Under the pieces are notes generated by a model. It saw nothing but the letters and a program-made list of their open reading frames with translations, made no database searches and was not told the origin of the DNA. A stretch of 64,000 nucleotides of DNA from a virus. The position numbers and the translations under genes were made by a program. Below, piece after piece: positions 3,420 through 26,664 of the stretch. The DNA is taken from IMG/VR virus record IMGVR_UViG_3300044910_000225, positions 3,698-67,697 of that record; one strand, 5' to 3'. How positions within the stretch are numbered: the stretch's first letter is position 1; every line of letters starts with the position of its first letter.

Positions 3420-4995
3420 TCCTGAAAAGAAGACAGTAGTAGAATGGATCAATGGTGTAAGCTATGATGTTGATCCTACGTATGTTCCAAGTGACTTTGC
3501 ACTGAAGTTTGTTACTTTTATAAAGCTAGTAAATGGGGGTAAAGGTGAAGAGAATAAGACTCCTGTAATCCACTATAAGATGCTAGATCAGATAGCAGGT
3601 AAGAAGCAGAATATCACTAATCTATGCTCAAGGGGTATGGCAAAGACAACTATCATGGGTGAATATATGATACTGTATATTGCTACATATGGCGGTATAG
3701 ATGGTTTTGGAGATATACCTCTAGGACTGTATGTAAGTGATAGTATTGAGAATGGTGTAAAGAATATGCGTAAGAATCTAGAGTATAGATGGGAAAATAG
3801 TGAGTTCCTACAGAAGTATATACCAAGGATACGATTCACAGATATAAGATGGGAATTCGAGAATGTAGATGGTAAAGTAACTATCTTTAAAGGGTATGGT
3901 GGTAAGACTGGAGTGAGGGGTAGTAAAGAACTAGGACAAAGACCATATATTGCAATATTGGATGACCTCATATCAGATGAGGATGCAAGATCACAGACAG
4001 TAAGAGCAAGTATAGAGGATACAGTGTATAAGGCTATAGACTATGCTCTACATCCTAGTAGAAGAAAGACTATCTGGAGTGGTACACCATTTAATGCTAA
4101 TGACCCACTGTATAAGGCTGTAGAGTCAGGAGCATGGTATGTTAATGTCTATCCTGTATGTGAAGTATTTCCATGTGAAGAGAAAGACTTCAAAGGTGGA
4201 TGGGAAGATCGTTTCACATATGAGTATGTAAAGACACAGTATGATAAGGCACTGAGAGCTGGTAAGATAGATACGTTCAATCAGGAGCTGATGCTGAGAA
4301 TCATGTCAGACGAAGACCGACTGGTACAAGATAGTGATATTGTATGGTATGATAGAAGTACAGTACTGTCTAATAAAGGAAAGTATAACTTCTATATCAC
4401 CACAGATTTTGCTACAAGTGAGAAGACAAGTGCTGACTACAGTGTGATCAGTGTATGGGCATACAATAACAATGGTGACTGGTTACTAGTGGATGGTGTG
4501 TGTAAGAGACAGCTGATGGATAAGAATATAGATGATCTGTTTAGATTCGTAAACTTGTATAAACCTCAGAGTGTAGGGGTAGAGGTAACAGGGCAGCAAG
4601 GTGGATTCATACAGTGGATACAAGATCAGATGCTAACAAGGAATATCTTCTTCAATCTAGCAAGTGAAGGTAATAGTGGTAATCCAGGACTAAGACCAAA
4701 TACTAATAAGATGGTACGATTCAATACTGTGCTACCACTATTCAAAGCTAGAAAGATATGGATGCCTAAAGCAATGGAGACAAGTGATATCATAGTGGAA
4801 GCAATGGATGAGTTAAGGAATGCAAGTGCAGGGGGATTCAAGAGTAAGCATGATGATTTCATAGATACAGTGAGTATGCTGAGCAGTCTACAGACATGGA
4901 AGCCAAGTGAAGAAGTAGCATATGAGCAAAAGAAAGATGGAGTATGGGAAGAGGTAGACTTTGAAGAAGCAGTACACAATAGTCTAGTATTCTAG
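3412..4995 (+). CDS. terL: Terminase large subunit
   Basis: Walker A SRGMAKTT, Walker B AILDD, nuclease motifs TTDFA and HDDFID. Confidence 0.95.
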   Translation: MSSPEKKTVVEWINGVSYDVDPTYVPSDFALKFVTFIKLVNGGKGEENKTPVIHYKMLDQIAGKKQNITNLCSRGMAKTTIMGEYMILYIATYGGIDGFGDIPLGLYVSDSIENGVKNMRKNLEYRWENSEFLQKYIPRIRFTDIRWEFENVDGKVTIFKGYGGKTGVRGSKELGQRPYIAILDDLISDEDARSQTVRASIEDTVYKAIDYALHPSRRKTIWSGTPFNANDPLYKAVESGAWYVNVYPVCEVFPCEEKDFKGGWEDRFTYEYVKTQYDKALRAGKIDTFNQELMLRIMSDEDRLVQDSDIVWYDRSTVLSNKGKYNFYITTDFATSEKTSADYSVISVWAYNNNGDWLLVDGVCKRQLMDKNIDDLFRFVNLYKPQSVGVEVTGQQGGFIQWIQDQMLTRNIFFNLASEGNSGNPGLRPNTNKMVRFNTVLPLFKARKIWMPKAMETSDIIVEAMDELRNASAGGFKSKHDDFIDTVSMLSSLQTWKPSEEVAYEQKKDGVWEEVDFEEAVHNSLVF

Positions 4996-5054: not shown

Positions 5055-5642
5055 ATGATCTATACGAAAGCAAAGATGAGAGAATTCGCTAGAAATCTAG
5101 ATAATCGTTTAGAGAATGATACTGCCTATACTGATACATGGTTAGATGATAGGATAGAGGAAGGAATTGCTTTAGCTCAAGACATAAAGCAAACACTATT
5201 CTATACTAAAGAAAAGTATGATATAGAAGCTAATCTCACAGTAGATATGCTGGGTGTAGTAGAGATCATACCTCAAAGAGAAGTGCATACTATCTGGGCA
5301 GTAGAATATGATACAGCATCAATGACTGTAGAAGTGACTGCAAATAATCATGTAATACTAAGACGCATAGAAGATGCTCCATTGCCTGAAGACTATACAG
5401 TAACAATCAGATACTTCTTCTACCATACTCTACCGTTCATTGAGATAGAGATGAGTATGGAAGTGTATAAGATGGTAAAGCATTGTATTGCAGTAGCATG
5501 CTTCCAATGGTTACAGGATCAAGAGAGTGAGCAATATCATACAGCAATAGCAGAAAGTATGGTAGTGAAGAGTACATTCGATATAGAAAAAGATCTAATG
5601 GAAATACCAGAAGATAGACTGTGGAGAGCATCATGGGCTTGA
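5055..5642 (+). CDS. Putative head-tail adaptor (N4 gp67 position)
   Basis: 195 aa after terL; synteny only. Confidence 0.55.
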   Translation: MIYTKAKMREFARNLDNRLENDTAYTDTWLDDRIEEGIALAQDIKQTLFYTKEKYDIEANLTVDMLGVVEIIPQREVHTIWAVEYDTASMTVEVTANNHVILRRIEDAPLPEDYTVTIRYFFYHTLPFIEIEMSMEVYKMVKHCIAVACFQWLQDQESEQYHTAIAESMVVKSTFDIEKDLMEIPEDRLWRASWA

Positions 5643-5929
5643 TAGTAGAAACAATCCCTGTACATGTTCCAGCCTCAAGAGTATGCACTGACGGTAGCAG
5701 CTCTAGTAACTATGAAGAGACAGGTAGTTTTGATATGAGCATATACAGAATACTGAGTATGCAGAATGATATGAAAACTATAGAGTATCCTATCAAAGTA
5801 TGTAATGAGTTTGATCTGTATCTACAGTATGCTGAAGATAATTATGACGGTATTGTGAATGTAAACTTTGATAGCCTAGATGAGTACCTAGGAACTATCG
5901 GAATAATAACTGAAATGTGTGAGGTATAG
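5633..5929 (+). CDS. Hypothetical virion-associated protein
   Basis: ORF coupled to its neighbours; likely start MGLIVET. Confidence 0.55.
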   Translation: MGLIVETIPVHVPASRVCTDGSSSSNYEETGSFDMSIYRILSMQNDMKTIEYPIKVCNEFDLYLQYAEDNYDGIVNVNFDSLDEYLGTIGIITEMCEV

Positions 5930-5931
5930 AT

Positions 5932-6780
5932 ATGGGCTTTGTAGAAAATGTAAATAAGGTAGCTAACGATCTTACGATAGAACTAGCAGAGAATGTTAAT
6001 ATAGTAGCTGGTATTGCTGATGATGTATCACAACTTGTGGATCTGTATAATGAGGGACAGTTGCCTCTGATTGATGATACTGTACCATCAGCTGATAAAG
6101 TATACAGTTCACTGCAGACTCAGACAATGCATGATGCTCAAGCAGAAGCAATAGGTAATCTAGCTAGTGCAAGTGGTTCTCTGGTAAAGACTGGTGTTCC
6201 AGTAGTACTAACATCAACATTCCAAGATCTAAGCTTTGCTACAAATGTACAATCATCAAATCCACTAGTATTTGAGATAGGTACAAATAATATGATTCTC
6301 AAGTCAAATGGTGATTATAACTTCTTCTCTATAATCACTGTACAGCTTAGCTCTGGTCAAACACAGACCATTCTGTTTGAGGTGTATGATACTGTAAATG
6401 CTACTGTACTAGCTTCATCTACAGGAACTGTAAATCAGTCCAATGGTGATATCATAGTGTTCCCAATCAATACACTAATGAGTGTGCAGAGTGTACCATA
6501 TGATGGGCAGCTTACAGTCAAAGTACGTGCTAAACTAACAGCAGGTTCTGCTACTACTGTTACTGATTTTTCATCTATGATGGTACTGAGTGGGGCAGCA
6601 AGTAGTGGGGGGCAACTGCTGGGTAAAGCACCTATGAAAGCAGTAGCATACCTAGCAGGTACAACTAGTGAAGTATTAGTAACACCAGATGGTTCTAATA
6701 ACTTCTCAATAGACTCACTAGTAATAGAAGATGGTGGCAGTCTAACTGTGTCTAATAACTCAATATATAAGGTACTATAA
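5932..6780 (+). CDS. Tail appendage/tailspike anchor protein
   Basis: Beta-rich 282 aa directly before the tailspikes. Confidence 0.55.
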   Translation: MGFVENVNKVANDLTIELAENVNIVAGIADDVSQLVDLYNEGQLPLIDDTVPSADKVYSSLQTQTMHDAQAEAIGNLASASGSLVKTGVPVVLTSTFQDLSFATNVQSSNPLVFEIGTNNMILKSNGDYNFFSIITVQLSSGQTQTILFEVYDTVNATVLASSTGTVNQSNGDIIVFPINTLMSVQSVPYDGQLTVKVRAKLTAGSATTVTDFSSMMVLSGAASSGGQLLGKAPMKAVAYLAGTTSEVLVTPDGSNNFSIDSLVIEDGGSLTVSNNSIYKVL

Positions 6781-8246
6781 TGAAGATAACACATAATGCA
6801 ATACAGTACAATGTAGATTCAGTAGCAGCTCTACTAACACTAGCTGGTGAAGAGAACCAGGTAACAGTAGTGACTGATGAGAACCAAGGTGGGACATTTG
6901 TGTATAGAGCAGATAATGCTTTAGTTAACAATGGTGGAACTATATTTAATGGGTGGACTAGGCAGTATGATGGCAATGCAAAATATACTTGGTTTGATAC
7001 AAAATCTAATGCTATTATATCTGGTCTTAAACTTGATTTTGTATCAAATGTTACCATTAATGTTCCAGCTGATACTTCAACAATACAAGGTGCATTAAAT
7101 ATTATTGGTAGCATTGCTGATGATGTATATGTAACAATTCAAGTTGCAGACGGTACATACGCAATGACAAGCAGTATTAATCTTGATCATCCAAATGGTA
7201 GTAATATCAGACTAATTGGTAATGAAACAACTGCATCAAGCTGTGTGCTACAAGTTGCTGGAGAGCCAAGTTTTACTATGCTTGTCTGTTCAAATAGCAA
7301 CAAATTTGGGTACATAAATGGATTTAGAATTAATGCTACTACAAAAGCAACATTGGCAAATAACCACTCTGGAATACTTGCATACAATGGAGCATTTATT
7401 CGCTGTGGTGCTGACATTGAAGTAAACAATTTCTACTATGGTATTAACTCATCATATAACTCTACTATTGTTGCAGATTATGCTAAAGTATCAAATGCTG
7501 GTGATGTTGGAATATGGGCTTTCTGTGGTTCATTTGTATCAGCTAGGTATGCGTATGCAACAGATTGTGCTGATGTTGTTAATGGATGGGGTTATGGAAT
7601 ACAGGCTGAATATGGTTCTAACGTGAACTGTGAATATGCCTATACATCAGGCAATAATATTGCTGGTATAGCAGCATTATCAAATTCACAAGTTAGAGCA
7701 TTAAACGCTACTGCATCACTGAATATAGGAAGTGGATTTCTAGCAAGAGATAATAGTTCTATTGAGTGTCACAGTGGTACAGCTTCTAGTAATTCAAGAT
7801 ATGGAATTGAAGAGTACACAAGTGGTAGAGTATTTGGAAATAGTATTACAACATCTACTAATACGCTTGGTAATTATGCTCCAGTAGCTCAGATGGATAA
7901 TACAACATTAGGTGCTAGAGTTATATCTAATAACGGTGATTTAAGACTAGATACAGCTGGAGCGAATAATATTTATTTTAATACATCAGGCGGTCTACAG
8001 TTTGGTGTCTCTCATACTGCTTCATCTGTAAATAGGCTTCAAGTGACTGGAGCATCTACTGGCTCGTCTCCTGTTATACAAGCAGCTGGCAGTGACTCCG
8101 TAATTGACGTAGCGATATTGCCTAAAGGTGCTGGTAGCTATGTAAAACTTGGAGCTGGATATGTAGCAACTCCATCAGCAACAATAGGGTATATATCTGT
8201 AAAAGATAATACTGGTACTATAAGAAAATTAGCAGTAATATCATAA
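6780..8246 (+). CDS. Tailspike 1 (beta-helix)
   Basis: N-terminal GGTFVY...NNGGTIFNGWTRQY domain shared with the other two spikes; Asn/Gly-rich parallel beta-helix repeats. Confidence 0.8.
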   Translation: MKITHNAIQYNVDSVAALLTLAGEENQVTVVTDENQGGTFVYRADNALVNNGGTIFNGWTRQYDGNAKYTWFDTKSNAIISGLKLDFVSNVTINVPADTSTIQGALNIIGSIADDVYVTIQVADGTYAMTSSINLDHPNGSNIRLIGNETTASSCVLQVAGEPSFTMLVCSNSNKFGYINGFRINATTKATLANNHSGILAYNGAFIRCGADIEVNNFYYGINSSYNSTIVADYAKVSNAGDVGIWAFCGSFVSARYAYATDCADVVNGWGYGIQAEYGSNVNCEYAYTSGNNIAGIAALSNSQVRALNATASLNIGSGFLARDNSSIECHSGTASSNSRYGIEEYTSGRVFGNSITTSTNTLGNYAPVAQMDNTTLGARVISNNGDLRLDTAGANNIYFNTSGGLQFGVSHTASSVNRLQVTGASTGSSPVIQAAGSDSVIDVAILPKGAGSYVKLGAGYVATPSATIGYISVKDNTGTIRKLAVIS

Positions 8247-8256
8247 AGGACAAACA

Positions 8257-9876
8257 ATGAGCAGCAAACTAACACTAAAGAATAGCATAGACACAGAGTT
8301 TAGTATTGAACATACAGATGGCAAGTCAGCTAAGACTATCAAAGGTACTGATATAGTAGTAGCAGTAGATACTATCAATGACTTTCCTACAGTAGCTAGT
8401 AATGGTGATGTAGTGATTGTGAGAGATAGCAATAGAGGTGGTACATTCGTATATGATAGTACACAAAGTGCTGTAAATAATGGAGGTACTATATTTGATG
8501 GATGGGTACGTCAGTATAGTGGTGCTGTAAATGTAAAGTGGTTTGGGGCTAAAGGGGATGGGGTTACAGATGATACAGTATCATTAACAAATGTTTTTAA
8601 TTATTGTATAGCTGCAACATATACTATTTATATGCCATCTGGAAACTATATAGTAACTGGAATCTCATTAACACCAAAAATAGTTGGAAATACTCCTATA
8701 AGAATTGTAGGCGATGCTGGTATTTACGTAGGTAATAACTTCACAACAATGATTACTAATATATCAACAACTGGTACAGATTGTATTTCATTTAATGGCA
8801 CCTCAAGTAACGAATTTACTAGAATAGAAATAGAAAACATTAGATTTAAAGGAAATGCACAATCAGGGCACGGACTATATGTTATATATGGAGGAGAACT
8901 TAATTGTGTTAATTCTTCATTTGACCATCACGGAAAGCATGGGGTATATTATAAAGACTCTTGGGTTCCAAGGTTTACAAAGTGTGACTTTAGATATAAT
9001 GGTCAATCATCAGCATTAAAAGATTATCATGGACTATACTTAGAAGGTTCTGCTCTTGTTGGGGTCAATGGCTCGTCATTAATTGATTGTACTACTGAGA
9101 TGAATTATGGTGATGGTATAAAAATAGTTGCCTCTGCAAGTGGTCAAGATTCTAATATAGGAACAATTATTAACTATAATTCAACATCAAATTATGGGGC
9201 TGGGCTTAGGTTGAAAGGAATATCTGCAAGTATAATTGGTGGATTTTCTGAGTTTAATGGCGGAGGAGGAATTGTATCAGGAGTATCAGGAACAACTAGT
9301 GATATGTATGGAATAGAGATTTCAGGAATGTTATTTGATTGTTATGATAGAGACAATCTAAATGGTGGTGTTCCAGTAAAAGCAATAGAACTTAATAGGG
9401 TTAGAGGATGCTCAATATCAGGACTATTTATAAGAAATGCAGTCGAAACTATTCCAATATCTTTATCGTCAGATTGTCTGGATATAAGCATAAACATGCC
9501 TTCGTCATGCTCGGTATATAACTGCACAAAGTTTATTATTTTCGGTACTAAAGAAATTGCTTATTCTATGCGTCCAATTAAAATAGGATATAGTGGTACA
9601 ACATATTCTACTGCTCAAACTGATACATTTGACTTACTAGGTGCATTTTCTCCAAAAATTTATAATATACAAAATAATTCAACAGCAACAAATATTCTTG
9701 CTTATCAATTTAATAGAAGCGGAACTGGGTTATTTGGAATTAGGAACTCTGGTGGTATATGTTCATCAAGCACATCAGTAGCAACAACACTTGGAACTGT
9801 ATCAGGTAAAATGCCTGTTTATGGGATGGACGGAGTATTTATAGGATGGCTTCCACTATACGCAACTATAACATAA
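8257..9876 (+). CDS. Tailspike 2 (pectate-lyase-like depolymerase)
   Basis: NVKWFGAKGDGVTDDT motif followed by a beta-helix region. Confidence 0.85.
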   Translation: MSSKLTLKNSIDTEFSIEHTDGKSAKTIKGTDIVVAVDTINDFPTVASNGDVVIVRDSNRGGTFVYDSTQSAVNNGGTIFDGWVRQYSGAVNVKWFGAKGDGVTDDTVSLTNVFNYCIAATYTIYMPSGNYIVTGISLTPKIVGNTPIRIVGDAGIYVGNNFTTMITNISTTGTDCISFNGTSSNEFTRIEIENIRFKGNAQSGHGLYVIYGGELNCVNSSFDHHGKHGVYYKDSWVPRFTKCDFRYNGQSSALKDYHGLYLEGSALVGVNGSSLIDCTTEMNYGDGIKIVASASGQDSNIGTIINYNSTSNYGAGLRLKGISASIIGGFSEFNGGGGIVSGVSGTTSDMYGIEISGMLFDCYDRDNLNGGVPVKAIELNRVRGCSISGLFIRNAVETIPISLSSDCLDISINMPSSCSVYNCTKFIIFGTKEIAYSMRPIKIGYSGTTYSTAQTDTFDLLGAFSPKIYNIQNNSTATNILAYQFNRSGTGLFGIRNSGGICSSSTSVATTLGTVSGKMPVYGMDGVFIGWLPLYATIT

Positions 9877-11081: not shown

Positions 11082-12752
11082 ATGGCAAGTTCTATAAAGC
11101 TAAAGAATGCTAATGGTAAGACATTAACAATAGAGAATAGTGATACTAATACAGTAGATACCACTATTAACATTATGAATGGAGTATATGCTATTGATAC
11201 AGTAGATGACTTTGATACTGTACCAGATGGTATTACTACTGTTATAGTAAAGGATACAAATAGAGGTGGAGACTTCTATTGGGATGCTGTAAGTGTTGAA
11301 GCTGATAATGGTGGTACTATCTTTCAAGTAACTGGAACTACTACTGGTAGATGGAAACGTATTTATAGTGGTAGTGTATCAGTTAAATGGTTTGGAGCAA
11401 AGGGTGATGGAATAGCTTTAGATTCCAGTTCAATACAAAATGCAATTAATACACTGGCATCATTTTCATCAAATTCATTTAATGGGTATAGTGGAGTATA
11501 TATTGGATATTCTCAAGAATTATATTTTCCTCAAGGTAGATATGTTATCAATTCAACTATTACTATTGGTGCTTATGCTGATATGGTCGGCGATAATGCA
11601 ATATTAATACCTGACGCATCTCTTGGCTCCAGTTGGGCTATAACTGGCTCAGGATGGTTGGGTAAAATAGATGGAATTCAATTCATTAATTTTACAAATG
11701 CTTTATATATTAACGTTGGAAATATTGATACTGGAAATACTATTATTAAAAATTGTACATTTTCTAAAAATGGGGTAGCTCTTAAATATAATTCTGTAAG
11801 CTCTATTTGTACAGTTGAAAAATGCCGTTTTGTAGAAAATACAGTAGCTATTTATAACGAAAACTGCGATAGATTCTTTTTACAAAATAGTTGGCTAACC
11901 GATGGAGTATCTATTAATAATTATGATGCACAAATTATAAATCATGGTTATATGGTTATTCAAAATATACTATATGTACCTTTGCCACAAACAGCACTAT
12001 ATACTTCATTAGTAAATAATTACTATTCTATAGAAATAAACAAGTGTAGACTTGGGGGTGAAAGTGGAAACAGAACAATCATAAATAACTATGCAGAAGG
12101 TTTTACAGACAATATTAACATGATAAATGTTTCAATTACTGATTCTTCTATATTTAGTACTGGAGGTACTCCAATTACATTATTTAAGCTTCCAAATAAT
12201 ATAGTATTTACTGGAAATACTGGCTTGAAAAATCAATCTTATGCTATTGTGTACAATAGTAATATAGCTTCTCTGTCATCTGAAATTACAAGAATAGGTT
12301 ATCAATTAAAAATAGTATGTGATATGCTATCTAATAATGGATTAGAGGTTACATCATACTTAAAGTTAGCACCATATATATCTATTTTTAATAATATGGT
12401 TAGCTATGGTTTTTCTAATGAGATTGCAACAAATATTATATCTGATACAATAAAATTTAGACTGAATGTAACAAGTGTAGATTCTGGAGAGTTTGCTAGA
12501 AATGCAGTATATGAGATTGTTATTGGACTTCTTGGAGATACTGTTGGAACTACATCAAAATATTTAGTTAAAGCTAATTATAGTGGCTCTGATATTGCAG
12601 AAATAATACCTATTATACAAGGTGCTACAACAACAGCTCCAGTATTATTTAATAATGCTGGTGTTCTTAGTGTAAAAACAAATGGAGCAACATCTGTTCA
12701 AAACTATCAATATAGTATAACAAGAACTATGTCATGTTTGTTGGTTCCATGA
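11082..12752 (+). CDS. Tailspike 3 (pectate-lyase-like depolymerase)
   Basis: SVKWFGAKGDG motif, shared N-terminal domain, beta-helix region. Confidence 0.85.
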   Translation: MASSIKLKNANGKTLTIENSDTNTVDTTINIMNGVYAIDTVDDFDTVPDGITTVIVKDTNRGGDFYWDAVSVEADNGGTIFQVTGTTTGRWKRIYSGSVSVKWFGAKGDGIALDSSSIQNAINTLASFSSNSFNGYSGVYIGYSQELYFPQGRYVINSTITIGAYADMVGDNAILIPDASLGSSWAITGSGWLGKIDGIQFINFTNALYINVGNIDTGNTIIKNCTFSKNGVALKYNSVSSICTVEKCRFVENTVAIYNENCDRFFLQNSWLTDGVSINNYDAQIINHGYMVIQNILYVPLPQTALYTSLVNNYYSIEINKCRLGGESGNRTIINNYAEGFTDNINMINVSITDSSIFSTGGTPITLFKLPNNIVFTGNTGLKNQSYAIVYNSNIASLSSEITRIGYQLKIVCDMLSNNGLEVTSYLKLAPYISIFNNMVSYGFSNEIATNIISDTIKFRLNVTSVDSGEFARNAVYEIVIGLLGDTVGTTSKYLVKANYSGSDIAEIIPIIQGATTTAPVLFNNAGVLSVKTNGATSVQNYQYSITRTMSCLLVP

Positions 12753-22023: not shown

Positions 22024-22797
22024 ATGGGAATACCTTCAGCTACAATCAATCTATCAAATAACATCCTCACTACTACTACAACATCAGTAGTAACCATATC
22101 ATTCAGTGAAGCTGTGACAGGATTTACAGTAGGAGATATAGCAGTATCCAATGCAACACTAGGCACACTGACAACTACAGACAATATCAACTTCACAGTG
22201 ACAATGACAGGTGCCAGTAACGTACTGGATAATAGCAATACTGTATCCATAGCAGATGCAGTGTGTACAAGTGTATCAACCAGTCAAGCCAATACAGCAG
22301 CAACAAGTACAAACTACACAGTCAATACAGTAGAAGTAGTAATAGATCCAAGTGTAGTAACTGATGGTACAGCGAGTGTAACAGGAGATGGTGTATTTGA
22401 TGTGTTCATGCAAGCAATAGCAGCACATCTCAAAGTAGAATATGATGCAAGACGTATCACATCAGATACATATCCTACAGTCTATCTAGGAGCACTACAG
22501 ACAGCACTGACACAAGCAGTGACATTCTCACTACAAAGACCACTGATAGAGAAACAAGCTAATAGTGAAGATGCTAAGAAAGCACTCATAGAGAGACAGA
22601 CAAAAGGATTTGATGATGATGCTAAACAGAAGCTATTGAAGCAAGCTCTAGATTCATGGTCAGTAGCATACTCAGTGGCTCAAGATGCAAACTCAATCCC
22701 TGATGCTATCAAGGTCAATCCGATAGATAGTATCATGAAGAATGCAATGGACAGTCTAGCTATCGTCAAAGGTAATAACCCTCTAGGAGAAATCTAA
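22024..22797 (+). CDS. N4 gp54-like virion protein with N-terminal Ig-like domain
   Basis: FSEAVTGFTVGDIAVSN Ig-like motif, then GDGVFDVFM gp54-like core. Confidence 0.7.
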   Translation: MGIPSATINLSNNILTTTTTSVVTISFSEAVTGFTVGDIAVSNATLGTLTTTDNINFTVTMTGASNVLDNSNTVSIADAVCTSVSTSQANTAATSTNYTVNTVEVVIDPSVVTDGTASVTGDGVFDVFMQAIAAHLKVEYDARRITSDTYPTVYLGALQTALTQAVTFSLQRPLIEKQANSEDAKKALIERQTKGFDDDAKQKLLKQALDSWSVAYSVAQDANSIPDAIKVNPIDSIMKNAMDSLAIVKGNNPLGEI

Positions 22798-23048
22798 TGG
22801 AAGTACTAGAGTTTCTAAATAAGAAGATAAGAGAAGAACATGGTAACAAAGTCACAATAGAGTCAAAGTGGACTGATGCAGGTATAGACAGTTTTGGATC
22901 TACAATGGTACTGTGTGACATGGATGCAGAATATGGATGCTTTGATAAAGAATGGTTCAATACTACAGACTTCTATACGTTGACCATACAAGATATAGTC
23001 GAAAGGGTTATCAATGAAAGTCCTAAGCTACAAGTACCTACTGCCTAA
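22797..23048 (+). CDS. Acyl carrier protein
   Basis: 83 aa, acidic, with a GIDSFG phosphopantetheine-site motif and a TIQDIV final helix. Confidence 0.8.
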   Translation: MEVLEFLNKKIREEHGNKVTIESKWTDAGIDSFGSTMVLCDMDAEYGCFDKEWFNTTDFYTLTIQDIVERVINESPKLQVPTA

Positions 23049-23847
23049 TACTGAAGGTATCATAGAAGAACTGGATAGAGATGGATATATGACTACACAG
23101 TATATCAGACTGGTAGAAGACTATATCAATACTATAGAACTAAAAGGTAAAGTAGCATTCCTGTATGCAGGTGGTGTAACAGCTACTGTCAGTGAATGTA
23201 GAAATGCTGTGAATACTGATAAGTACAGAGAGAAGCTAAAGCCAAGTGGTATGGGAATACGAGATCTAGCAGCATACAGTATGCATAAGTGGGTAGGTAT
23301 GATGAATGGGAAAGAGAACATATGCTATGCTAATATAAATGGTAATACATGTGCAAGTAGTATGTACTGTATATACGAGGCTCAGGAGCTACTGAAGAAT
23401 GGATATGATGAAGTTATCATAGTAGCAGAAGAAAAGACCTCACACAGTACTCTACGTGTGTTTGATGAGCTACGTATAGATATCAAGATAGGAGAAGCTC
23501 TAGCAATCATACATCTCGGTAAAGGTACTGGTATAAGCAACTGCAAAGTATGGTATGAGTACAACAGCAATCCATTCGGAGTAACACCAACAGGATACTG
23601 TAAAGTGGTGTCAGATAGTGACTATATCAATCCTCATGGCACAGGTACAGCTATCAATGAATGTGCTGAGTCTGAAGTATATGGGGATACTCCACAACTA
23701 CGATACAAAGAGACTATAGGGCATACACAAGGTGTCAGTGGTCTAGTAGAAGTATGTATGGTACTTGATGAAGATGTGAGTGGTAAAGTACTGTGTGTCT
23801 CAAGTGGTCTCGGAGGGTTCTATGCCTCATGCATCGTACACAAGTAA
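23014..23847 (+). CDS. Minimal beta-ketoacyl-ACP synthase (FabB/FabF-like)
   Basis: Cys-His-His triad motifs NTCASS, INPHGTGT, KETIGHTQG; C-terminal SSGLGG. Confidence 0.9.
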   Translation: MKVLSYKYLLPNTEGIIEELDRDGYMTTQYIRLVEDYINTIELKGKVAFLYAGGVTATVSECRNAVNTDKYREKLKPSGMGIRDLAAYSMHKWVGMMNGKENICYANINGNTCASSMYCIYEAQELLKNGYDEVIIVAEEKTSHSTLRVFDELRIDIKIGEALAIIHLGKGTGISNCKVWYEYNSNPFGVTPTGYCKVVSDSDYINPHGTGTAINECAESEVYGDTPQLRYKETIGHTQGVSGLVEVCMVLDEDVSGKVLCVSSGLGGFYASCIVHK

Positions 23848-24310
23848 TGGTGATCTCTACTGTGTAGAGAAAGTCACAGACCACTCAGAAGTAGCAACAG
23901 ATGTATTGATGATACTGGCAGATGCTGAGATAGAGAATGTAGATGAATATAGTGCTAGAATGCATGAAGCAATAGACCAAGGACTAGCATACCATATAAA
24001 GAAGAACGGTGCAACAGTAGGAATCATGTACAACAGAGTCCATGAGGGTAAATATGAAGGATCCTGCATATACTGCAAGAATGATACAGTAGGTATGATG
24101 ATACTACTAAAGACAATGTTTGAAATTAATGATGCACATAAGATATACGTAATGCCTTACAAAGGCAGTATTAAATACTTCCTATCACTAGCAACAGAAG
24201 CAAGCATAAAAGCATATCATGTTAAAGAAGCACCACTAGTAATAGTGAAGAATACAATAGTACCAAAAGGTACAAGAGCTTTCAGATACCTAGAGATAGA
24301 GGAACTATAA
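23822..24310 (+). CDS. Putative GNAT-like acyltransferase
   Basis: GGAGG RBS before ATG 23822; about 160 aa with helix-helix then AYHIKKNGATVGIMY beta-hairpin pattern. Fold inferred by eye only. Confidence 0.45.
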   Translation: MPHASYTSNGDLYCVEKVTDHSEVATDVLMILADAEIENVDEYSARMHEAIDQGLAYHIKKNGATVGIMYNRVHEGKYEGSCIYCKNDTVGMMILLKTMFEINDAHKIYVMPYKGSIKYFLSLATEASIKAYHVKEAPLVIVKNTIVPKGTRAFRYLEIEEL

Positions 24311-26664
24311 TGGGAGCAGTAGTAGATGTAGTGGAAGATACACTAGAAGACTTCGTAGCTATAACAACAATCATACTCATCAACATGTTTCCAGGTGAGG
24401 CACTGATACTAGCATACCTGTGTGATGAGTGTGAATCATTCATGAGTGATCAGATAGGTATAACACTAGGATGGTTAGGCATAGAAGAAGAAGATGTCAT
24501 AACAGTACAGATGCAAGATCAGCTACTGATACAAGACCAGGACTTCTACAAGAACCTCATGACACAAGTAGCAATAGAACACCAAAGAACTCAGAAGGGA
24601 ATCATAGACCTACTAGCTGTAAAGTCACAAGGTGTAAGAGGATCAATGAATAAATACTCAAGTTATGGTAAGAGTACATTCCTAGATGGTGAACCTACTA
24701 CGACTGTCAATACTGTAAACATAGATGAGAGTGTGGTAGAGTTAGCAATAGAGACTGATACTGGCGAGAACATAACTGTGACATCACTATCAATGAGAGT
24801 ACCAACAGAGACAGAATGGGTAGGATACAATCTGACATTCACACATGACTATAATCCTACCACAGGAATACTGATATATACTGGTGTGAGATACATGGTA
24901 TTCTCAAGTACATATAACTATGGTACAGGTAAGTATGATGTGGAGATAGGCAGAGAATGCATACAGACAGTGACAACAACTGTGACAGTAACAAACATAG
25001 ACGCTACAACAGATAATGTGCATACAGTAGTAGAAACAATAGTTACAGCATATGAGGGTATAATCAGCACAACAACAAATACAACTGATGTTGTAGTACC
25101 AATCGGGACAGTCTCAAACAGTACAAATGTAGTAACTACAAACATAGTGGTGGGAACAACACTGTTATATGTAGATGACTTCTTACCAAATCTAGCATAT
25201 GTAGCACACTACACAATCGTAGGAAGCAGTGATGAGTACTACTGGATATACTTCGTAGGATCAGGAAATGCAGCTCTAGACAATGCAAGAAACTACCTCA
25301 CTGACCTTGATATGCTACCAATAGTAGAACTACGAAGTAATGCTACATCAATCACAGCAGACAAAGAAAGTACTAGGTACAAGCAATCAAAAGAGATACT
25401 AGGATTCATAGGCATAGATGTAGATACAATGTGTGAAAGCATAGACAGCAATCCAAATGTGGATGGTATAGCAGCAGCATATGTGTACTTCGGAGCAGAA
25501 CTAGGAAGCAATGACCCAATCCAAGCAGAACTGATATATGCAACAATGGAGTATATCTATGATGATCCAACTCTAGTAACAGATGGTGTGCATACCATAC
25601 GAGTACAAGAAGGAAACTACAACTCATCAATATCATGGGATGAACAAGAACGTCTAACAGTATCAAGAACTGGAGTACCAGTAGGAACGTATGAAGGTGG
25701 TATAGGGGATATAGCAATAGTAGAGGATGTGCCAGATGAGGAAGGTAATGTAATAGATACAGAGACTAAGTATAGATACTATGCATGGGTACGAAAGCAA
25801 GTGACTAGCTCATACTATGTAGAATACAGAGTATATAATGTGTCAGCAATAACACTGATCACCAAAGGTGCAATGTATGATACAGTATTCAAAGTACTAT
25901 CTCCTGACAATACGATAGTAATACCACTGAGCATATACTTCCTGAACAAGCTGACACCAATAGAGCAGGGAGTAGTATTCCCACAGATACTGAGAATGGT
26001 AACATACGCTGCTGATATACAGCATCTAGACTACTACCAGACGGAAGCATTCTTCAACCTGATACAAGTTGTAGTAGTAATTGTAGCAATAGTAATATTC
26101 ATATTTACATGGTACACAGGTGGAGCAACATCAGCAGCATTCATGACAGCAGTAGAGGGTCTACTGATAGGAATGGCAATAGGCTATGCACTACAGATGC
26201 TACTGGCTGCAGTAGACAATCCCTACCTAAAAGCACTGATAGTAGTAGTAGCTGTGATAGTAGCAGTATACACAAACCAATTCAATGGGGATATGCTAAA
26301 AACCGTAGTGTTCTCAGCAGATCTACTACTGACTGCAGTAACACAATATGCAGACTCAATACTAGAAGGAGGATTCTCAGCACTAGCAATGGAATCACAG
26401 AACTTCTTGGAGAAAGCAAAGGAAGCAGAAGATAAACTGAATGAGTATACTGATATGATAGCAAGTGTACTCAGTACAGAGGAAGTACAAAGATTATCTA
26501 GAATGCAAGAAGCTAAAGCATACATAGAAGGATTTGAGCTACAACGATATAGAGCAAGCGTAGACTTCATGTGCAACTGGGATCTAGTAAAGTCAATGAA
26601 GATGAATACAAACATATATGACTATGATCAACACTATAAAGTGAATGTACTAAGCATAGGCTAG
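24310..26664 (+). CDS. N4 gp53-like virion protein with C-terminal membrane segments
   Basis: 784 aa; YYQTEAF followed by long hydrophobic helices; synteny. Confidence 0.75.
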   Translation: MGAVVDVVEDTLEDFVAITTIILINMFPGEALILAYLCDECESFMSDQIGITLGWLGIEEEDVITVQMQDQLLIQDQDFYKNLMTQVAIEHQRTQKGIIDLLAVKSQGVRGSMNKYSSYGKSTFLDGEPTTTVNTVNIDESVVELAIETDTGENITVTSLSMRVPTETEWVGYNLTFTHDYNPTTGILIYTGVRYMVFSSTYNYGTGKYDVEIGRECIQTVTTTVTVTNIDATTDNVHTVVETIVTAYEGIISTTTNTTDVVVPIGTVSNSTNVVTTNIVVGTTLLYVDDFLPNLAYVAHYTIVGSSDEYYWIYFVGSGNAALDNARNYLTDLDMLPIVELRSNATSITADKESTRYKQSKEILGFIGIDVDTMCESIDSNPNVDGIAAAYVYFGAELGSNDPIQAELIYATMEYIYDDPTLVTDGVHTIRVQEGNYNSSISWDEQERLTVSRTGVPVGTYEGGIGDIAIVEDVPDEEGNVIDTETKYRYYAWVRKQVTSSYYVEYRVYNVSAITLITKGAMYDTVFKVLSPDNTIVIPLSIYFLNKLTPIEQGVVFPQILRMVTYAADIQHLDYYQTEAFFNLIQVVVVIVAIVIFIFTWYTGGATSAAFMTAVEGLLIGMAIGYALQMLLAAVDNPYLKALIVVVAVIVAVYTNQFNGDMLKTVVFSADLLLTAVTQYADSILEGGFSALAMESQNFLEKAKEAEDKLNEYTDMIASVLSTEEVQRLSRMQEAKAYIEGFELQRYRASVDFMCNWDLVKSMKMNTNIYDYDQHYKVNVLSIG

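Follow-up and report, generated by a model that had tools for sequence, protein, structure and literature searches.

The 67,697-bp virus record IMGVR_UViG_3300044910_000225 (IMG/VR) is that of an N4-like phage, with an SU10-type portal and an open reading frame (ORF) for a 2657-aa virion RNA polymerase (vRNAP). Its tail genes enclose a cassette of three coupled ORFs on the + strand that resemble an acyl carrier protein, a miniature ketosynthase and a GNAT-fold protein, and the question that we address here is what such a set of genes may do in a phage tail module. The window that we analyzed is the 64,000-nucleotide stretch from base 3698 to base 67697 of the record, and positions in this phage are given in window coordinates. 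The nearest cultured relatives are N4-like phages of Alteromonas and Vibrio, which are distant (66-76% nucleotide identity across a few hundred bases of the capsid gene). The cassette spans positions 22797-24310, between a gp54-like and a gp53-like gene, and the genes of the region are as follows.

22024..22797, + strand: gp54-like tail-tube protein with an N-terminal Ig-like (Big_12) domain (Pfam Big_12, E 7e-17; phrog_2050, E 1e-32)
22797..23048, + strand: acyl carrier protein-like (ACP, ORF1), 83 aa, with the motif D-A-G-I-D-S-F-G and a presumed phosphopantetheine site at Ser32 (alignment, family profile)
23014..23847, + strand: mini-ketosynthase (KS, ORF2), 277 aa, with Cys113, His208, Lys232 and His237 (Pfam, profile, model)
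23822..24310, + strand: GNAT-fold protein (ORF3), 162 aa, a presumed acyl-ACP-dependent acyltransferase (structure model, Foldseek)
24310..26664, + strand: gp53-like tail-plug protein, 784 aa, a candidate acceptor (phrog_2220, E 6e-37; tblastn)

The three genes are joined to one another and to both of their neighbors. TAATG junctions link the stop of the gp54-like gene to the start of the ACP gene (22795) and the stop of ORF3 to the start of the gp53-like gene (24308), and within the cassette the ACP and KS genes overlap by 35 nucleotides (nt) and the KS and ORF3 genes by 26 nt. ATG 23822 was taken as the start of ORF3, since its relatives align from there; a mechanical ORF list gave GTG 23780. 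The G+C content of the cassette genes is 0.365-0.397, compared with 0.38-0.43 for neighboring genes, their third-position A content (0.35-0.47) lies within the range of the flanking structural genes, and in relative synonymous codon usage they agree with the structural genes (correlation r = 0.935, 59 codons). A preliminary description of the window had read the three ORFs as coupled or overlapping genes between the gp54-like and gp53-like genes, and had taken their codon style, similar to that of the structural genes, as a sign that they are resident; both points hold. No terminator-like site was found on the + strand between 19000 and 29000, and a promoter scan was uninformative, with fewer sigma-70-like sites than in shuffles.

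Several observations support the assignment of ORF1, from its sequence, as an ACP-type carrier. Asp31 and Ser32 are the only invariant columns in an alignment of positional homologues from related loci (34/34), and they form the D-S-(L/F) motif that ACPs have at the beginning of helix II. The best match of the carrier family profile in the PDB is NodF (1fh1, E 5.4e-6), followed by dozens of acyl and D-alanyl carrier proteins at E 0.002-0.5, and 8 of the 34 relatives individually match the Pfam PP-binding domain (PF00550), the best at E 1.8e-4. Partner genes that such a carrier might be expected to have were sought with Pfam models in the whole record, and none was found for a phosphopantetheinyl transferase (PPTase; PF01648), FabA/FabZ (PF07977), a short-chain reductase (PF13561), a malonyl transferase (PF00698) or an AMP-ligase (PF00501). 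The same scan detects the KS with PF02801 and misses the diverged ACP with PF00550, so very diverged copies of these pathway genes could escape it. With that limit, the earlier statement that no reductase, dehydratase or PPTase is present in the window extends to the entire record. Since the phage has no detectable gene for a PPTase, a malonyl transferase, a reductase, a dehydratase or an acyl ligase, activation of the carrier and at least part of its charging must fall to the host.

ORF2 is supported by its sequence and its predicted structure as a miniature Cys-His-His ketosynthase. It matches Pfam Ketoacyl-synt_C at 22.7 bits (cut-off 20.8) and gives no match to the N-terminal KS domain of Pfam (ketoacyl-synt). 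Among 1134 candidates there are 241 relatives at E <= 0.001, and nearly all of the 120 listed are 264-290 aa long. Cys113, His208, Lys232, His237 and the threonines of the HGTGT motif are kept in every one of these 120 listed relatives, and conservation of the tetrad argues for retained KS chemistry. In the PDB, the KS profile matches FabF (8z5c, E 6e-5), with the Cys and the two His motifs (HGT and GH) aligned to those of FabF. An AlphaFold2 (AF2) model of the protein (pLDDT 88.8) was matched by Foldseek to FabB, FabF, the actinorhodin KS (act-KS) and KS domains of fatty-acid synthases (FAS) and polyketide synthases (PKS) at E 2e-11 to 2e-9, with template-modeling (TM) scores of 0.58-0.70 by query and only 0.42-0.49 by target. 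The length of 277 aa compares with ~405-413 aa in the matched solved FabB/FabF chains, a difference of ~130 residues that comes from trimming of both halves. The protein thus has the thiolase fold and the catalytic residues of a KS and does not have the full-length two-domain architecture (~400 aa).

The mini-KS family was seen only in viral or metagenomic sequence in the searches made. A pattern scan for cellular relatives in the genomes of 185,579 species returned 50 stretches, of which 0 were confirmed; the patterns were narrow, and we regard this as moderate evidence. A cluster look-up for named NCBI members of the family returned no names, and no fused KS form was found among longer proteins at E <= 1e-5, which is weak evidence.

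The identity of ORF3 rests on its predicted structure. An AF2 model built with 26 homologues has a pLDDT of 92.9 and a pTM of 0.86. Foldseek returned 36 matches in the PDB at E <= 0.001, and those of the listed matches that have a name are all acetyltransferases of the GNAT type, among them Naa50, Naa10 and NatD (TM by query 0.44-0.57). Structure rows for ORF3 in the ESM Atlas fall in GNAT clusters (TM 0.62-0.68), and its matches in the viral structure library BFVD are phage proteins labeled 'NAT_SF' or acetyltransferase. A GNAT fold is therefore supported, because two independent model sources, AF2 and the Atlas, agree. At the sequence level, Pfam and PHROG gave no named family beyond weak acetyltransferase leads, as did a feature search of the Atlas; the Acetyltransf families of Pfam had no match in 33 of 33 family members scanned (E <= 0.1), and the ORF3 profile found no GNAT among PDB sequences at E <= 10. 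GNATs bind the pyrophosphate of coenzyme A (CoA) through a Q/R-x-x-G-x-G/A motif, and by eye this motif is not present at the beta4-alpha3 junction of the window ORF3, which reads K-N-D-T-V-G-M-M.

ORF3 nevertheless belongs to a sizeable family. A single-sequence word search gave 2 proteins only, and an exhaustive profile search gave representatives of 212 clusters. Of these, 150 are listed, and apart from a few shorter fragments nearly every one is a full-length protein of ~140-185 aa that stands alone. An alignment of 140 sequences shows strong conservation of Tyr70 (99%), Met47 (95%) and a His at residue 113 of the window protein (94%).

Given a carrier and a GNAT-fold protein encoded so close together, it is of interest whether the two are predicted to bind one another. 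The complex of ORF3 with the ACP, modeled from a 26-row alignment of ORF3 and a 34-row alignment of the carrier, reached an ipSAE of 0.68, compared with 0.00 for the best of 3 controls. Of 80 solved complexes, 58 attained this mark, as did 2 of 110 mismatched pairs. The runs of the complex share at least 96% of their contacts, and the pLDDT of the partners is at least 86. On the carrier, the predicted interface comprises residues 29-37, D31 and S32 included, together with helix II; on ORF3 it comprises residues 89-96 at the start of helix alpha3, residues 118-129 in the loop and helix after beta5, and residues 149-158. We take this side of ORF3 to be the one on which the pantetheine-diphosphate of CoA lies in GNATs, and a pantetheine bound to Ser32 could therefore reach the usual active-site cleft. 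The carrier is thus predicted to bind ORF3 via its Ser32 face. The preliminary description had named the three ORFs as an ACP with GIDS (seen here as GIDSFG), a 277-aa KS that keeps Cys-His-His and a GNAT-like protein. It had proposed fold prediction and modeling of the ACP-GNAT complex as checks, and had set conservation of the ACP Ser and the KS Cys as a test beforehand. The assignments are supported by the profile match to NodF, the Foldseek matches of the KS to FabB, FabF and act-KS (E ~2e-11) and the confidently predicted fold of ORF3, an ACP-GNAT complex is predicted, and the two residues are kept in 34/34 and 120/120 relatives, respectively.

The cassette is not peculiar to one phage. 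When viral contigs were scanned with the KS alignment, 45 loci were found, and at 43 of them the KS ORF is complete. The gene immediately before the KS is ACP-like at 41 of 41 loci with upstream sequence, the gene immediately after it is ORF3-like (hidden Markov model [HMM] E <= 1e-3) at 31 of 42 loci with downstream sequence, and a gp53-like protein detectable by BLASTP follows the cassette at 25 of 42. These counts are not independent, because several loci are identical across samples (e.g., L010=L011 and L017=L018=L019). ORF3 had no HMM match at 11 loci, most of which have an ORF of 99-180 aa in that place; at L006 the KS directly adjoins a large protein, and at L044 the place of ORF3 is taken by a 302-aa ORF. 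At L033 (5730-8350) and L009 (5796-9870), the carrier and KS are followed by an ORF of 99-103 aa instead of a GNAT of ~160 aa, and the large protein encoded next begins differently (MN..I..L.YFFTPIKLYGG followed by a stretch rich in Gly, Ser and Asp).

A narrow alignment of the gp54-like gene served as the anchor of a second scan, which gave 33 loci, 32 of them with new identifiers. The full trio is present at 14 of these 32, an ACP and KS with a diverged ORF of 160-168 aa at 3, and an ACP and ORF3 without a KS at 1 (L071); at 12 there is no cassette gene, 1 is cut after the ACP, and 1 is a 517-bp fragment. Among the loci that lack the cassette, L072 (4935-6181) has two gp54-like genes apparently in tandem, the second of which begins MTITIDTLTNNEITGAGVFDEIM, and L076 (5392-5715, 107 aa) and L078 (544-969, 141 aa) each have one small ORF between the gp54-like and gp53-like genes. 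Across the two scans of viral contigs, homologues of the cassette are linked to the gp54/gp53 neighborhood, and the same order recurs in dozens of uncultured phage contigs with KS identity down to ~32%. These findings support a trio that is resident and whose link to the gp54/gp53 junction is ancient.

The KS is dispensable in some phages. The cultured Alteromonas phages PT11-V19 and R22Y (vB_AmeP-R22Y) have the order gp54-like, ACP-like, ORF3-like, gp53-like. The PT11-V19 hypothetical proteins 00023 and 00024 match the carrier and ORF3 in hhalign at 99.2% and 99.8%, the R22Y carrier and ORF3 have HMM E values of 4e-25 and 3e-40, and tblastn found no match to the KS in either phage. In a tree of 29 ORF3 sequences, from which L009, L032, L033, L037, L039, L040, L042 and L066-68 were left out as doubtful or too diverged, the KS-less rows nest within an 11-row clade (support 98/93) whose eight other members are KS-bearing. 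Secondary loss of the KS is therefore probable; L071 forms a long branch, and its placement is unsure. Since R22Y, PT11-V19 and L071 have the ACP and GNAT only, the KS is not essential to the system. The idea that the trio acts as one working unit accordingly stands for the linkage of ACP and GNAT and fails for a requirement for the KS.

The genes on either side of the cassette bear on what it might act upon. With tblastn, the downstream protein is found in Vibrio and Alteromonas N4-like phages, including a gene of Vibrio phage phi50-12 labeled 'N4 gp53', and in the phi50-12 record a gene labeled 'N4 gp54' comes directly before it with nothing between. The upstream gene, whose phrog_2050 label is 'virion structural protein', is called gp54-like from this position in the phi50-12 record and from its Big_12 and phrog_2050 matches. 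According to the available part of PMC13434306, a 2026 paper on the structure of N4, gp54 of N4 is the tail tube, present in twelve copies, gp53 is the tail plug, in which residues 29-56 and 670-716 form a hydrophobic knot that corks the tube, and the ejection channel consists of gp52 in the outer membrane and gp51 in the periplasm. On that account the suggestion that gp53 is part of the ejection channel has to be given up. The window gp53-like protein has hydrophobic stretches at 15-38 and 576-660, in relative positions that match the N4 knot, and its first Lys is residue 81. Homologues of the tail-tube protein (alignment A5) vary in an N-terminal add-on: the window and L001 have Big_12 there, L002 has an insert that is far longer, and many have none. 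Their C-terminal part is strongly conserved, with a RQTKGFDDDAKQKLLKQ...DSWSVAYSVA motif.

It had also been suggested that Gly at position 2 marks acylation sites on two virion proteins. The residue is indeed present in both, since the gp53-like protein begins MGAVVD and the vRNAP begins MGLLED, and it is its standing as a cassette-specific site that does not survive. Among 21 distinct gp53-like proteins next to a cassette, 9 begin with MG, 10 with MS and 2 with MP, while 6 of 9 distinct ones from cassette-less relatives begin with MG, and so does gp53 of the cassette-less phi50-12 (MGFFSK). From these counts with and without the cassette, a small second residue is a trait of the gp53 family and not a mark of the cassette. 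What still favors gp53 as an acceptor is its adjacency, the translational coupling, its lysine-free hydrophobic N-terminus and a repeat of the arrangement in a different phage (MW202545.1); this is suggestive and not proof.

The 57-kb phage MW202545.1 (L047) is of another type. Its positions 5351-9092 encode a small DIDSL protein, an annotated KS of 314 aa and an ORF of 146 aa, followed by a 639-aa protein starting MGGVV and then a block that ends in an SLT transglycosylase. The DIDSL protein matches the carrier profile in hhalign at E 6.6e-5, the 146-aa ORF is not homologous to ORF3 by hhalign, and BLASTP found no significant similarity between the window gp53-like protein and the 639-aa protein. 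MW202545.1 may represent a second, independent placement of a carrier and KS before entry proteins.

How might the cassette work? Translation of its genes, coupled to that of gp54 and gp53, would take place on the late structural transcript. A host AcpS-type enzyme would attach phosphopantetheine to Ser32 of the carrier, because no PPTase is detectable in the phage. Cys113 of the KS could then take an acyl chain from the host pool and condense it with malonyl-carrier by means of His208, His237 and Lys232, so that a chain extended by two carbons, possibly still in the 3-oxo form, would end up on the private carrier; in phages that lack the KS, host enzymes would load the carrier instead. In the predicted complex, the GNAT contacts the Ser32/helix-II face of the carrier with the side that usually holds CoA, and the acyl group would be passed to an amine of an acceptor needed in tail assembly or entry. 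If that acceptor is gp53, the cassette would work as HlyC does on pro-haemolysin, or as NodF/NodE/NodA do. We put the probability at about 0.5 that the cassette is a phage-private acyl-ACP-dependent acyl transfer system, similar to HlyC or NodF/E/A, that acts late on a candidate tail or entry acceptor. The single most likely candidate would be gp53, via its N-terminal amine or a lysine, and even this candidate is a doubtful one. Equally tentative is the proposal that these phages lipidate their own tail, in which case the carrier-GNAT pair, fed by the KS, would attach a fatty or 3-oxo-acyl chain to the N-terminus of gp53 (Gly2 or Ser2 after removal of Met) or to a lysine, and the plug, once released at the cell surface, would anchor in or breach the outer membrane.

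A number of findings weigh against a private acyl transfer system of this kind. Gly2, tried as a cassette-specific acceptor, was rejected on its occurrence in 9/21 proteins with the cassette versus 6/9 without it and in phi50-12. The cassette may adjoin gp53 simply because it was inserted once, long ago, into a gene order in which gp54 and gp53 were already fixed. The score of the predicted complex is a model confidence and not a measurement, the window ACP has no match to PF00550, and the KS is dispensable in three lineages, which obscures its role in a pathway. In ORF3, there is no sequence-level match to models of GNAT, HlyC or T7 gp13, zero residues are invariant in the 26-sequence alignment, and position 113, a His in 94% of the family, is a Tyr in the window protein and in a relative with 88% identity.

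These features of ORF3, the absence of an invariant residue and the missing His of the window copy, would fit a non-catalytic GNAT-fold morphogenesis factor like T7 gp13, with the carrier as its partner or an assembly chaperone and a KS that is unrelated to the virion or sets the acylation state of the carrier. GNAT-fold genes do recurrently adjoin internal-virion and tail genes of podoviruses. We consider this explanation distinctly unlikely, as Tyr70 and His113 are kept in 99% and 94% of 140 ORF3 sequences, ORF3 has no sequence match to PF11090 or PF11039, and conservation of the carrier Asp-Ser in 34/34 and of the KS tetrad in 120/120 relatives is hard to explain without chemistry. If chemistry is accepted, the acceptor need not be a protein. 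The same reactions could make or alter a small molecule or a lipid of the envelope late in infection, such as an N-acyl amino acid, a signal like an acyl-homoserine lactone, or an acylated lipid or sugar amine, with the tail operon serving for timing only. N-acyl amino acid synthases are GNAT-like enzymes that use acyl-ACP, and so are other small-molecule synthases (LuxI family); NodF, the best solved match of the carrier, belongs to the NodF/NodE/NodA system that acylates a sugar amine, and gp53 has no acceptor residue specific to cassette carriers. A non-protein acceptor is harder to reconcile with a place between tail-tube and tail-plug genes that has stayed constant through deep divergence (KS identity to ~32%), with a similar MGGVV protein after the cassette of a different phage type, and with the fact that the Foldseek matches listed for ORF3 include no LuxI- or NodA-type protein, and we regard it as unlikely.

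The order of the reactions could also be reversed, such that the GNAT is a loader or primer, as in the GNAT loading domains of some PKS or the malonyl-ACP decarboxylase YiiD/MadA, and a homodimeric mini-KS assembles a short chain of the poly-beta-keto or fatty type. Docking at Ser32, as predicted, would be equally compatible with this role, and an ACP and KS with no reductase or dehydratase resemble a minimal polyketide system. A GNAT-containing protein that acts on malonyl-ACP is known in Proteobacteria, according to the available part of PMC8666670. A loader is nonetheless decidedly improbable: the KS-less lineages would make a primed carrier and have no further step, and the families searched included no match to a chain-length factor, a cyclase or a thioesterase. 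Finally, the genes could be an auxiliary metabolic gene (AMG) set that boosts host fatty-acid synthesis, which is how the carrier is annotated in the available part of the R22Y paper and would fit the FabB/FabF-like fold of the KS. A carrier too diverged for Pfam, a KS ~130 residues shorter than FabF that has no confirmed cellular relative in 185,579 species' genomes, the lack of any other FAS gene in the Pfam scans, and a fixed place in the tail module beside a GNAT predicted to bind the carrier make this highly improbable.

Two observations concern the phage as a whole. The virus record is classed as having direct terminal repeats, a sign of a complete genome, although the same table puts its completeness at 67. 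At window positions 8257-9876 and 11082-12752, both on the + strand, are genes for proteins of 539 and 556 aa, each with a beta-helix domain similar to that of pectate lyases (Pect-lyase_RHGA_epim, E 2e-8 and 1e-11), and these proteins are likely tailspikes or capsule depolymerases.

Carrier proteins of phages are usually filed as metabolic helpers, and here one is part of a virus-only module in the tail genes of a widespread marine N4-like group. If a tail or entry protein is acylated, covalent lipidation would join the known means by which podoviruses cross the Gram-negative envelope, and a conserved block of 'hypothetical' genes would be explained; tail lipidation, if true, would be the first case in bacteriophages of a protein lipidation system that is encoded by the virus and depends on a carrier protein. 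A KS of 277 aa, about two thirds of the normal size with all of its catalytic residues, may be of interest for enzyme engineering. The occurrence of a two-gene version in the cultured Alteromonas phages R22Y and PT11-V19 opens the question to bench testing. Full-text searching of the literature found no description of the cassette, and the words 'acyl' and 'fatty acid' are absent from the main text of an N4-like survey (PMC10654107).

Comparison with known systems helps to place the cassette. The preliminary description had pointed to N-myristoyltransferase. That enzyme has two GNAT-like halves, is ~400 aa in length, uses an acyl-CoA donor and strictly requires an N-terminal Gly on its acceptor. 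ORF3 is a single domain of 162 aa, and the candidate acceptor has Ser2 in 10/21 and Pro2 in 2/21 cases, so the analogy breaks down on both size and the Gly requirement. With type II fatty-acid synthesis by AcpP and FabB/FabF, the cassette shares the DS(L/F) motif of the carrier and the thiolase fold, Cys-His-His, Lys, and HGTGT and GH motifs of the KS. It differs in the 277-aa length of its KS and in that the Pfam scans found no malonyl transferase (MAT), ketoreductase (KR), dehydratase (DH) or enoyl reductase (ER) in the phage.

Among phages, the 'ACP' of R22Y and proteins 00023/00024 of PT11-V19 are true homologues of the carrier and ORF3 in the same gp54-like/gp53-like slot, and differ in having no ketosynthase. 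In its available part, the R22Y paper gives the ACP as an auxiliary metabolic gene and leaves the GNAT partner and the tail context unmentioned; that its gp30 is this carrier ORF could not be confirmed, as the record has no annotation. GNAT-fold or GNAT-annotated genes of other podoviruses (T7 gp13, P22 gp14-type DUF2824 and the cobavirus GNAT) adjoin tail or internal-virion genes and are thought to act in morphogenesis, as stated in the available part of PMC6775973. The models for T7 gp13 internal virion protein A (PF11090) and DUF2824 (PF11039) have no match in the phage genome at E <= 10, and neither a carrier protein nor a KS is reported alongside the GNATs of T7, P22 or cobaviruses.

The systems that the cassette most resembles in outline are the HlyC-type acyltransferases and the Nod proteins. 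NodF is a dedicated ACP, NodE a dedicated ketosynthase and NodA an N-acyltransferase with an acyl-carrier donor, and among solved structures the phage carrier profile matches NodF best (1fh1, E 5.4e-6). NodE is a full-length enzyme of the ketoacyl-ACP synthase (KAS) II type, in contrast to the 277-aa phage KS, and the Nod acceptor is a chitin oligosaccharide, which nothing in the phage tail operon suggests. HlyC-type enzymes use an acyl-ACP donor, have a GNAT-like fold without the CoA-binding elements, and are encoded beside the gene for their substrate, according to the available part of a review (PMC8339906). Like HlyC/RtxC proteins (E. coli HlyC, ApxIC), ORF3 is small and GNAT-like (162 aa, compared with ~170 aa for HlyC) and lacks a sequence match to CoA-using GNATs, and its predicted docking on the Ser32 face of the ACP would parallel the acyl-ACP donor of HlyC. 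The HlyC model (PF02794) has no match in the phage genome at E <= 10, and the catalytic His23 of HlyC lies near the N-terminus, whereas the family His of ORF3 is at 113 (Tyr in the window). HlyC also relies on the AcpP of its host, whereas the phage has its own carrier and often its own KS. The parts of the cassette are of known kinds, and what is new, as a variant of acyl-ACP-dependent transfer, is that they are combined, miniaturized and kept at one position within the tail module of a phage.

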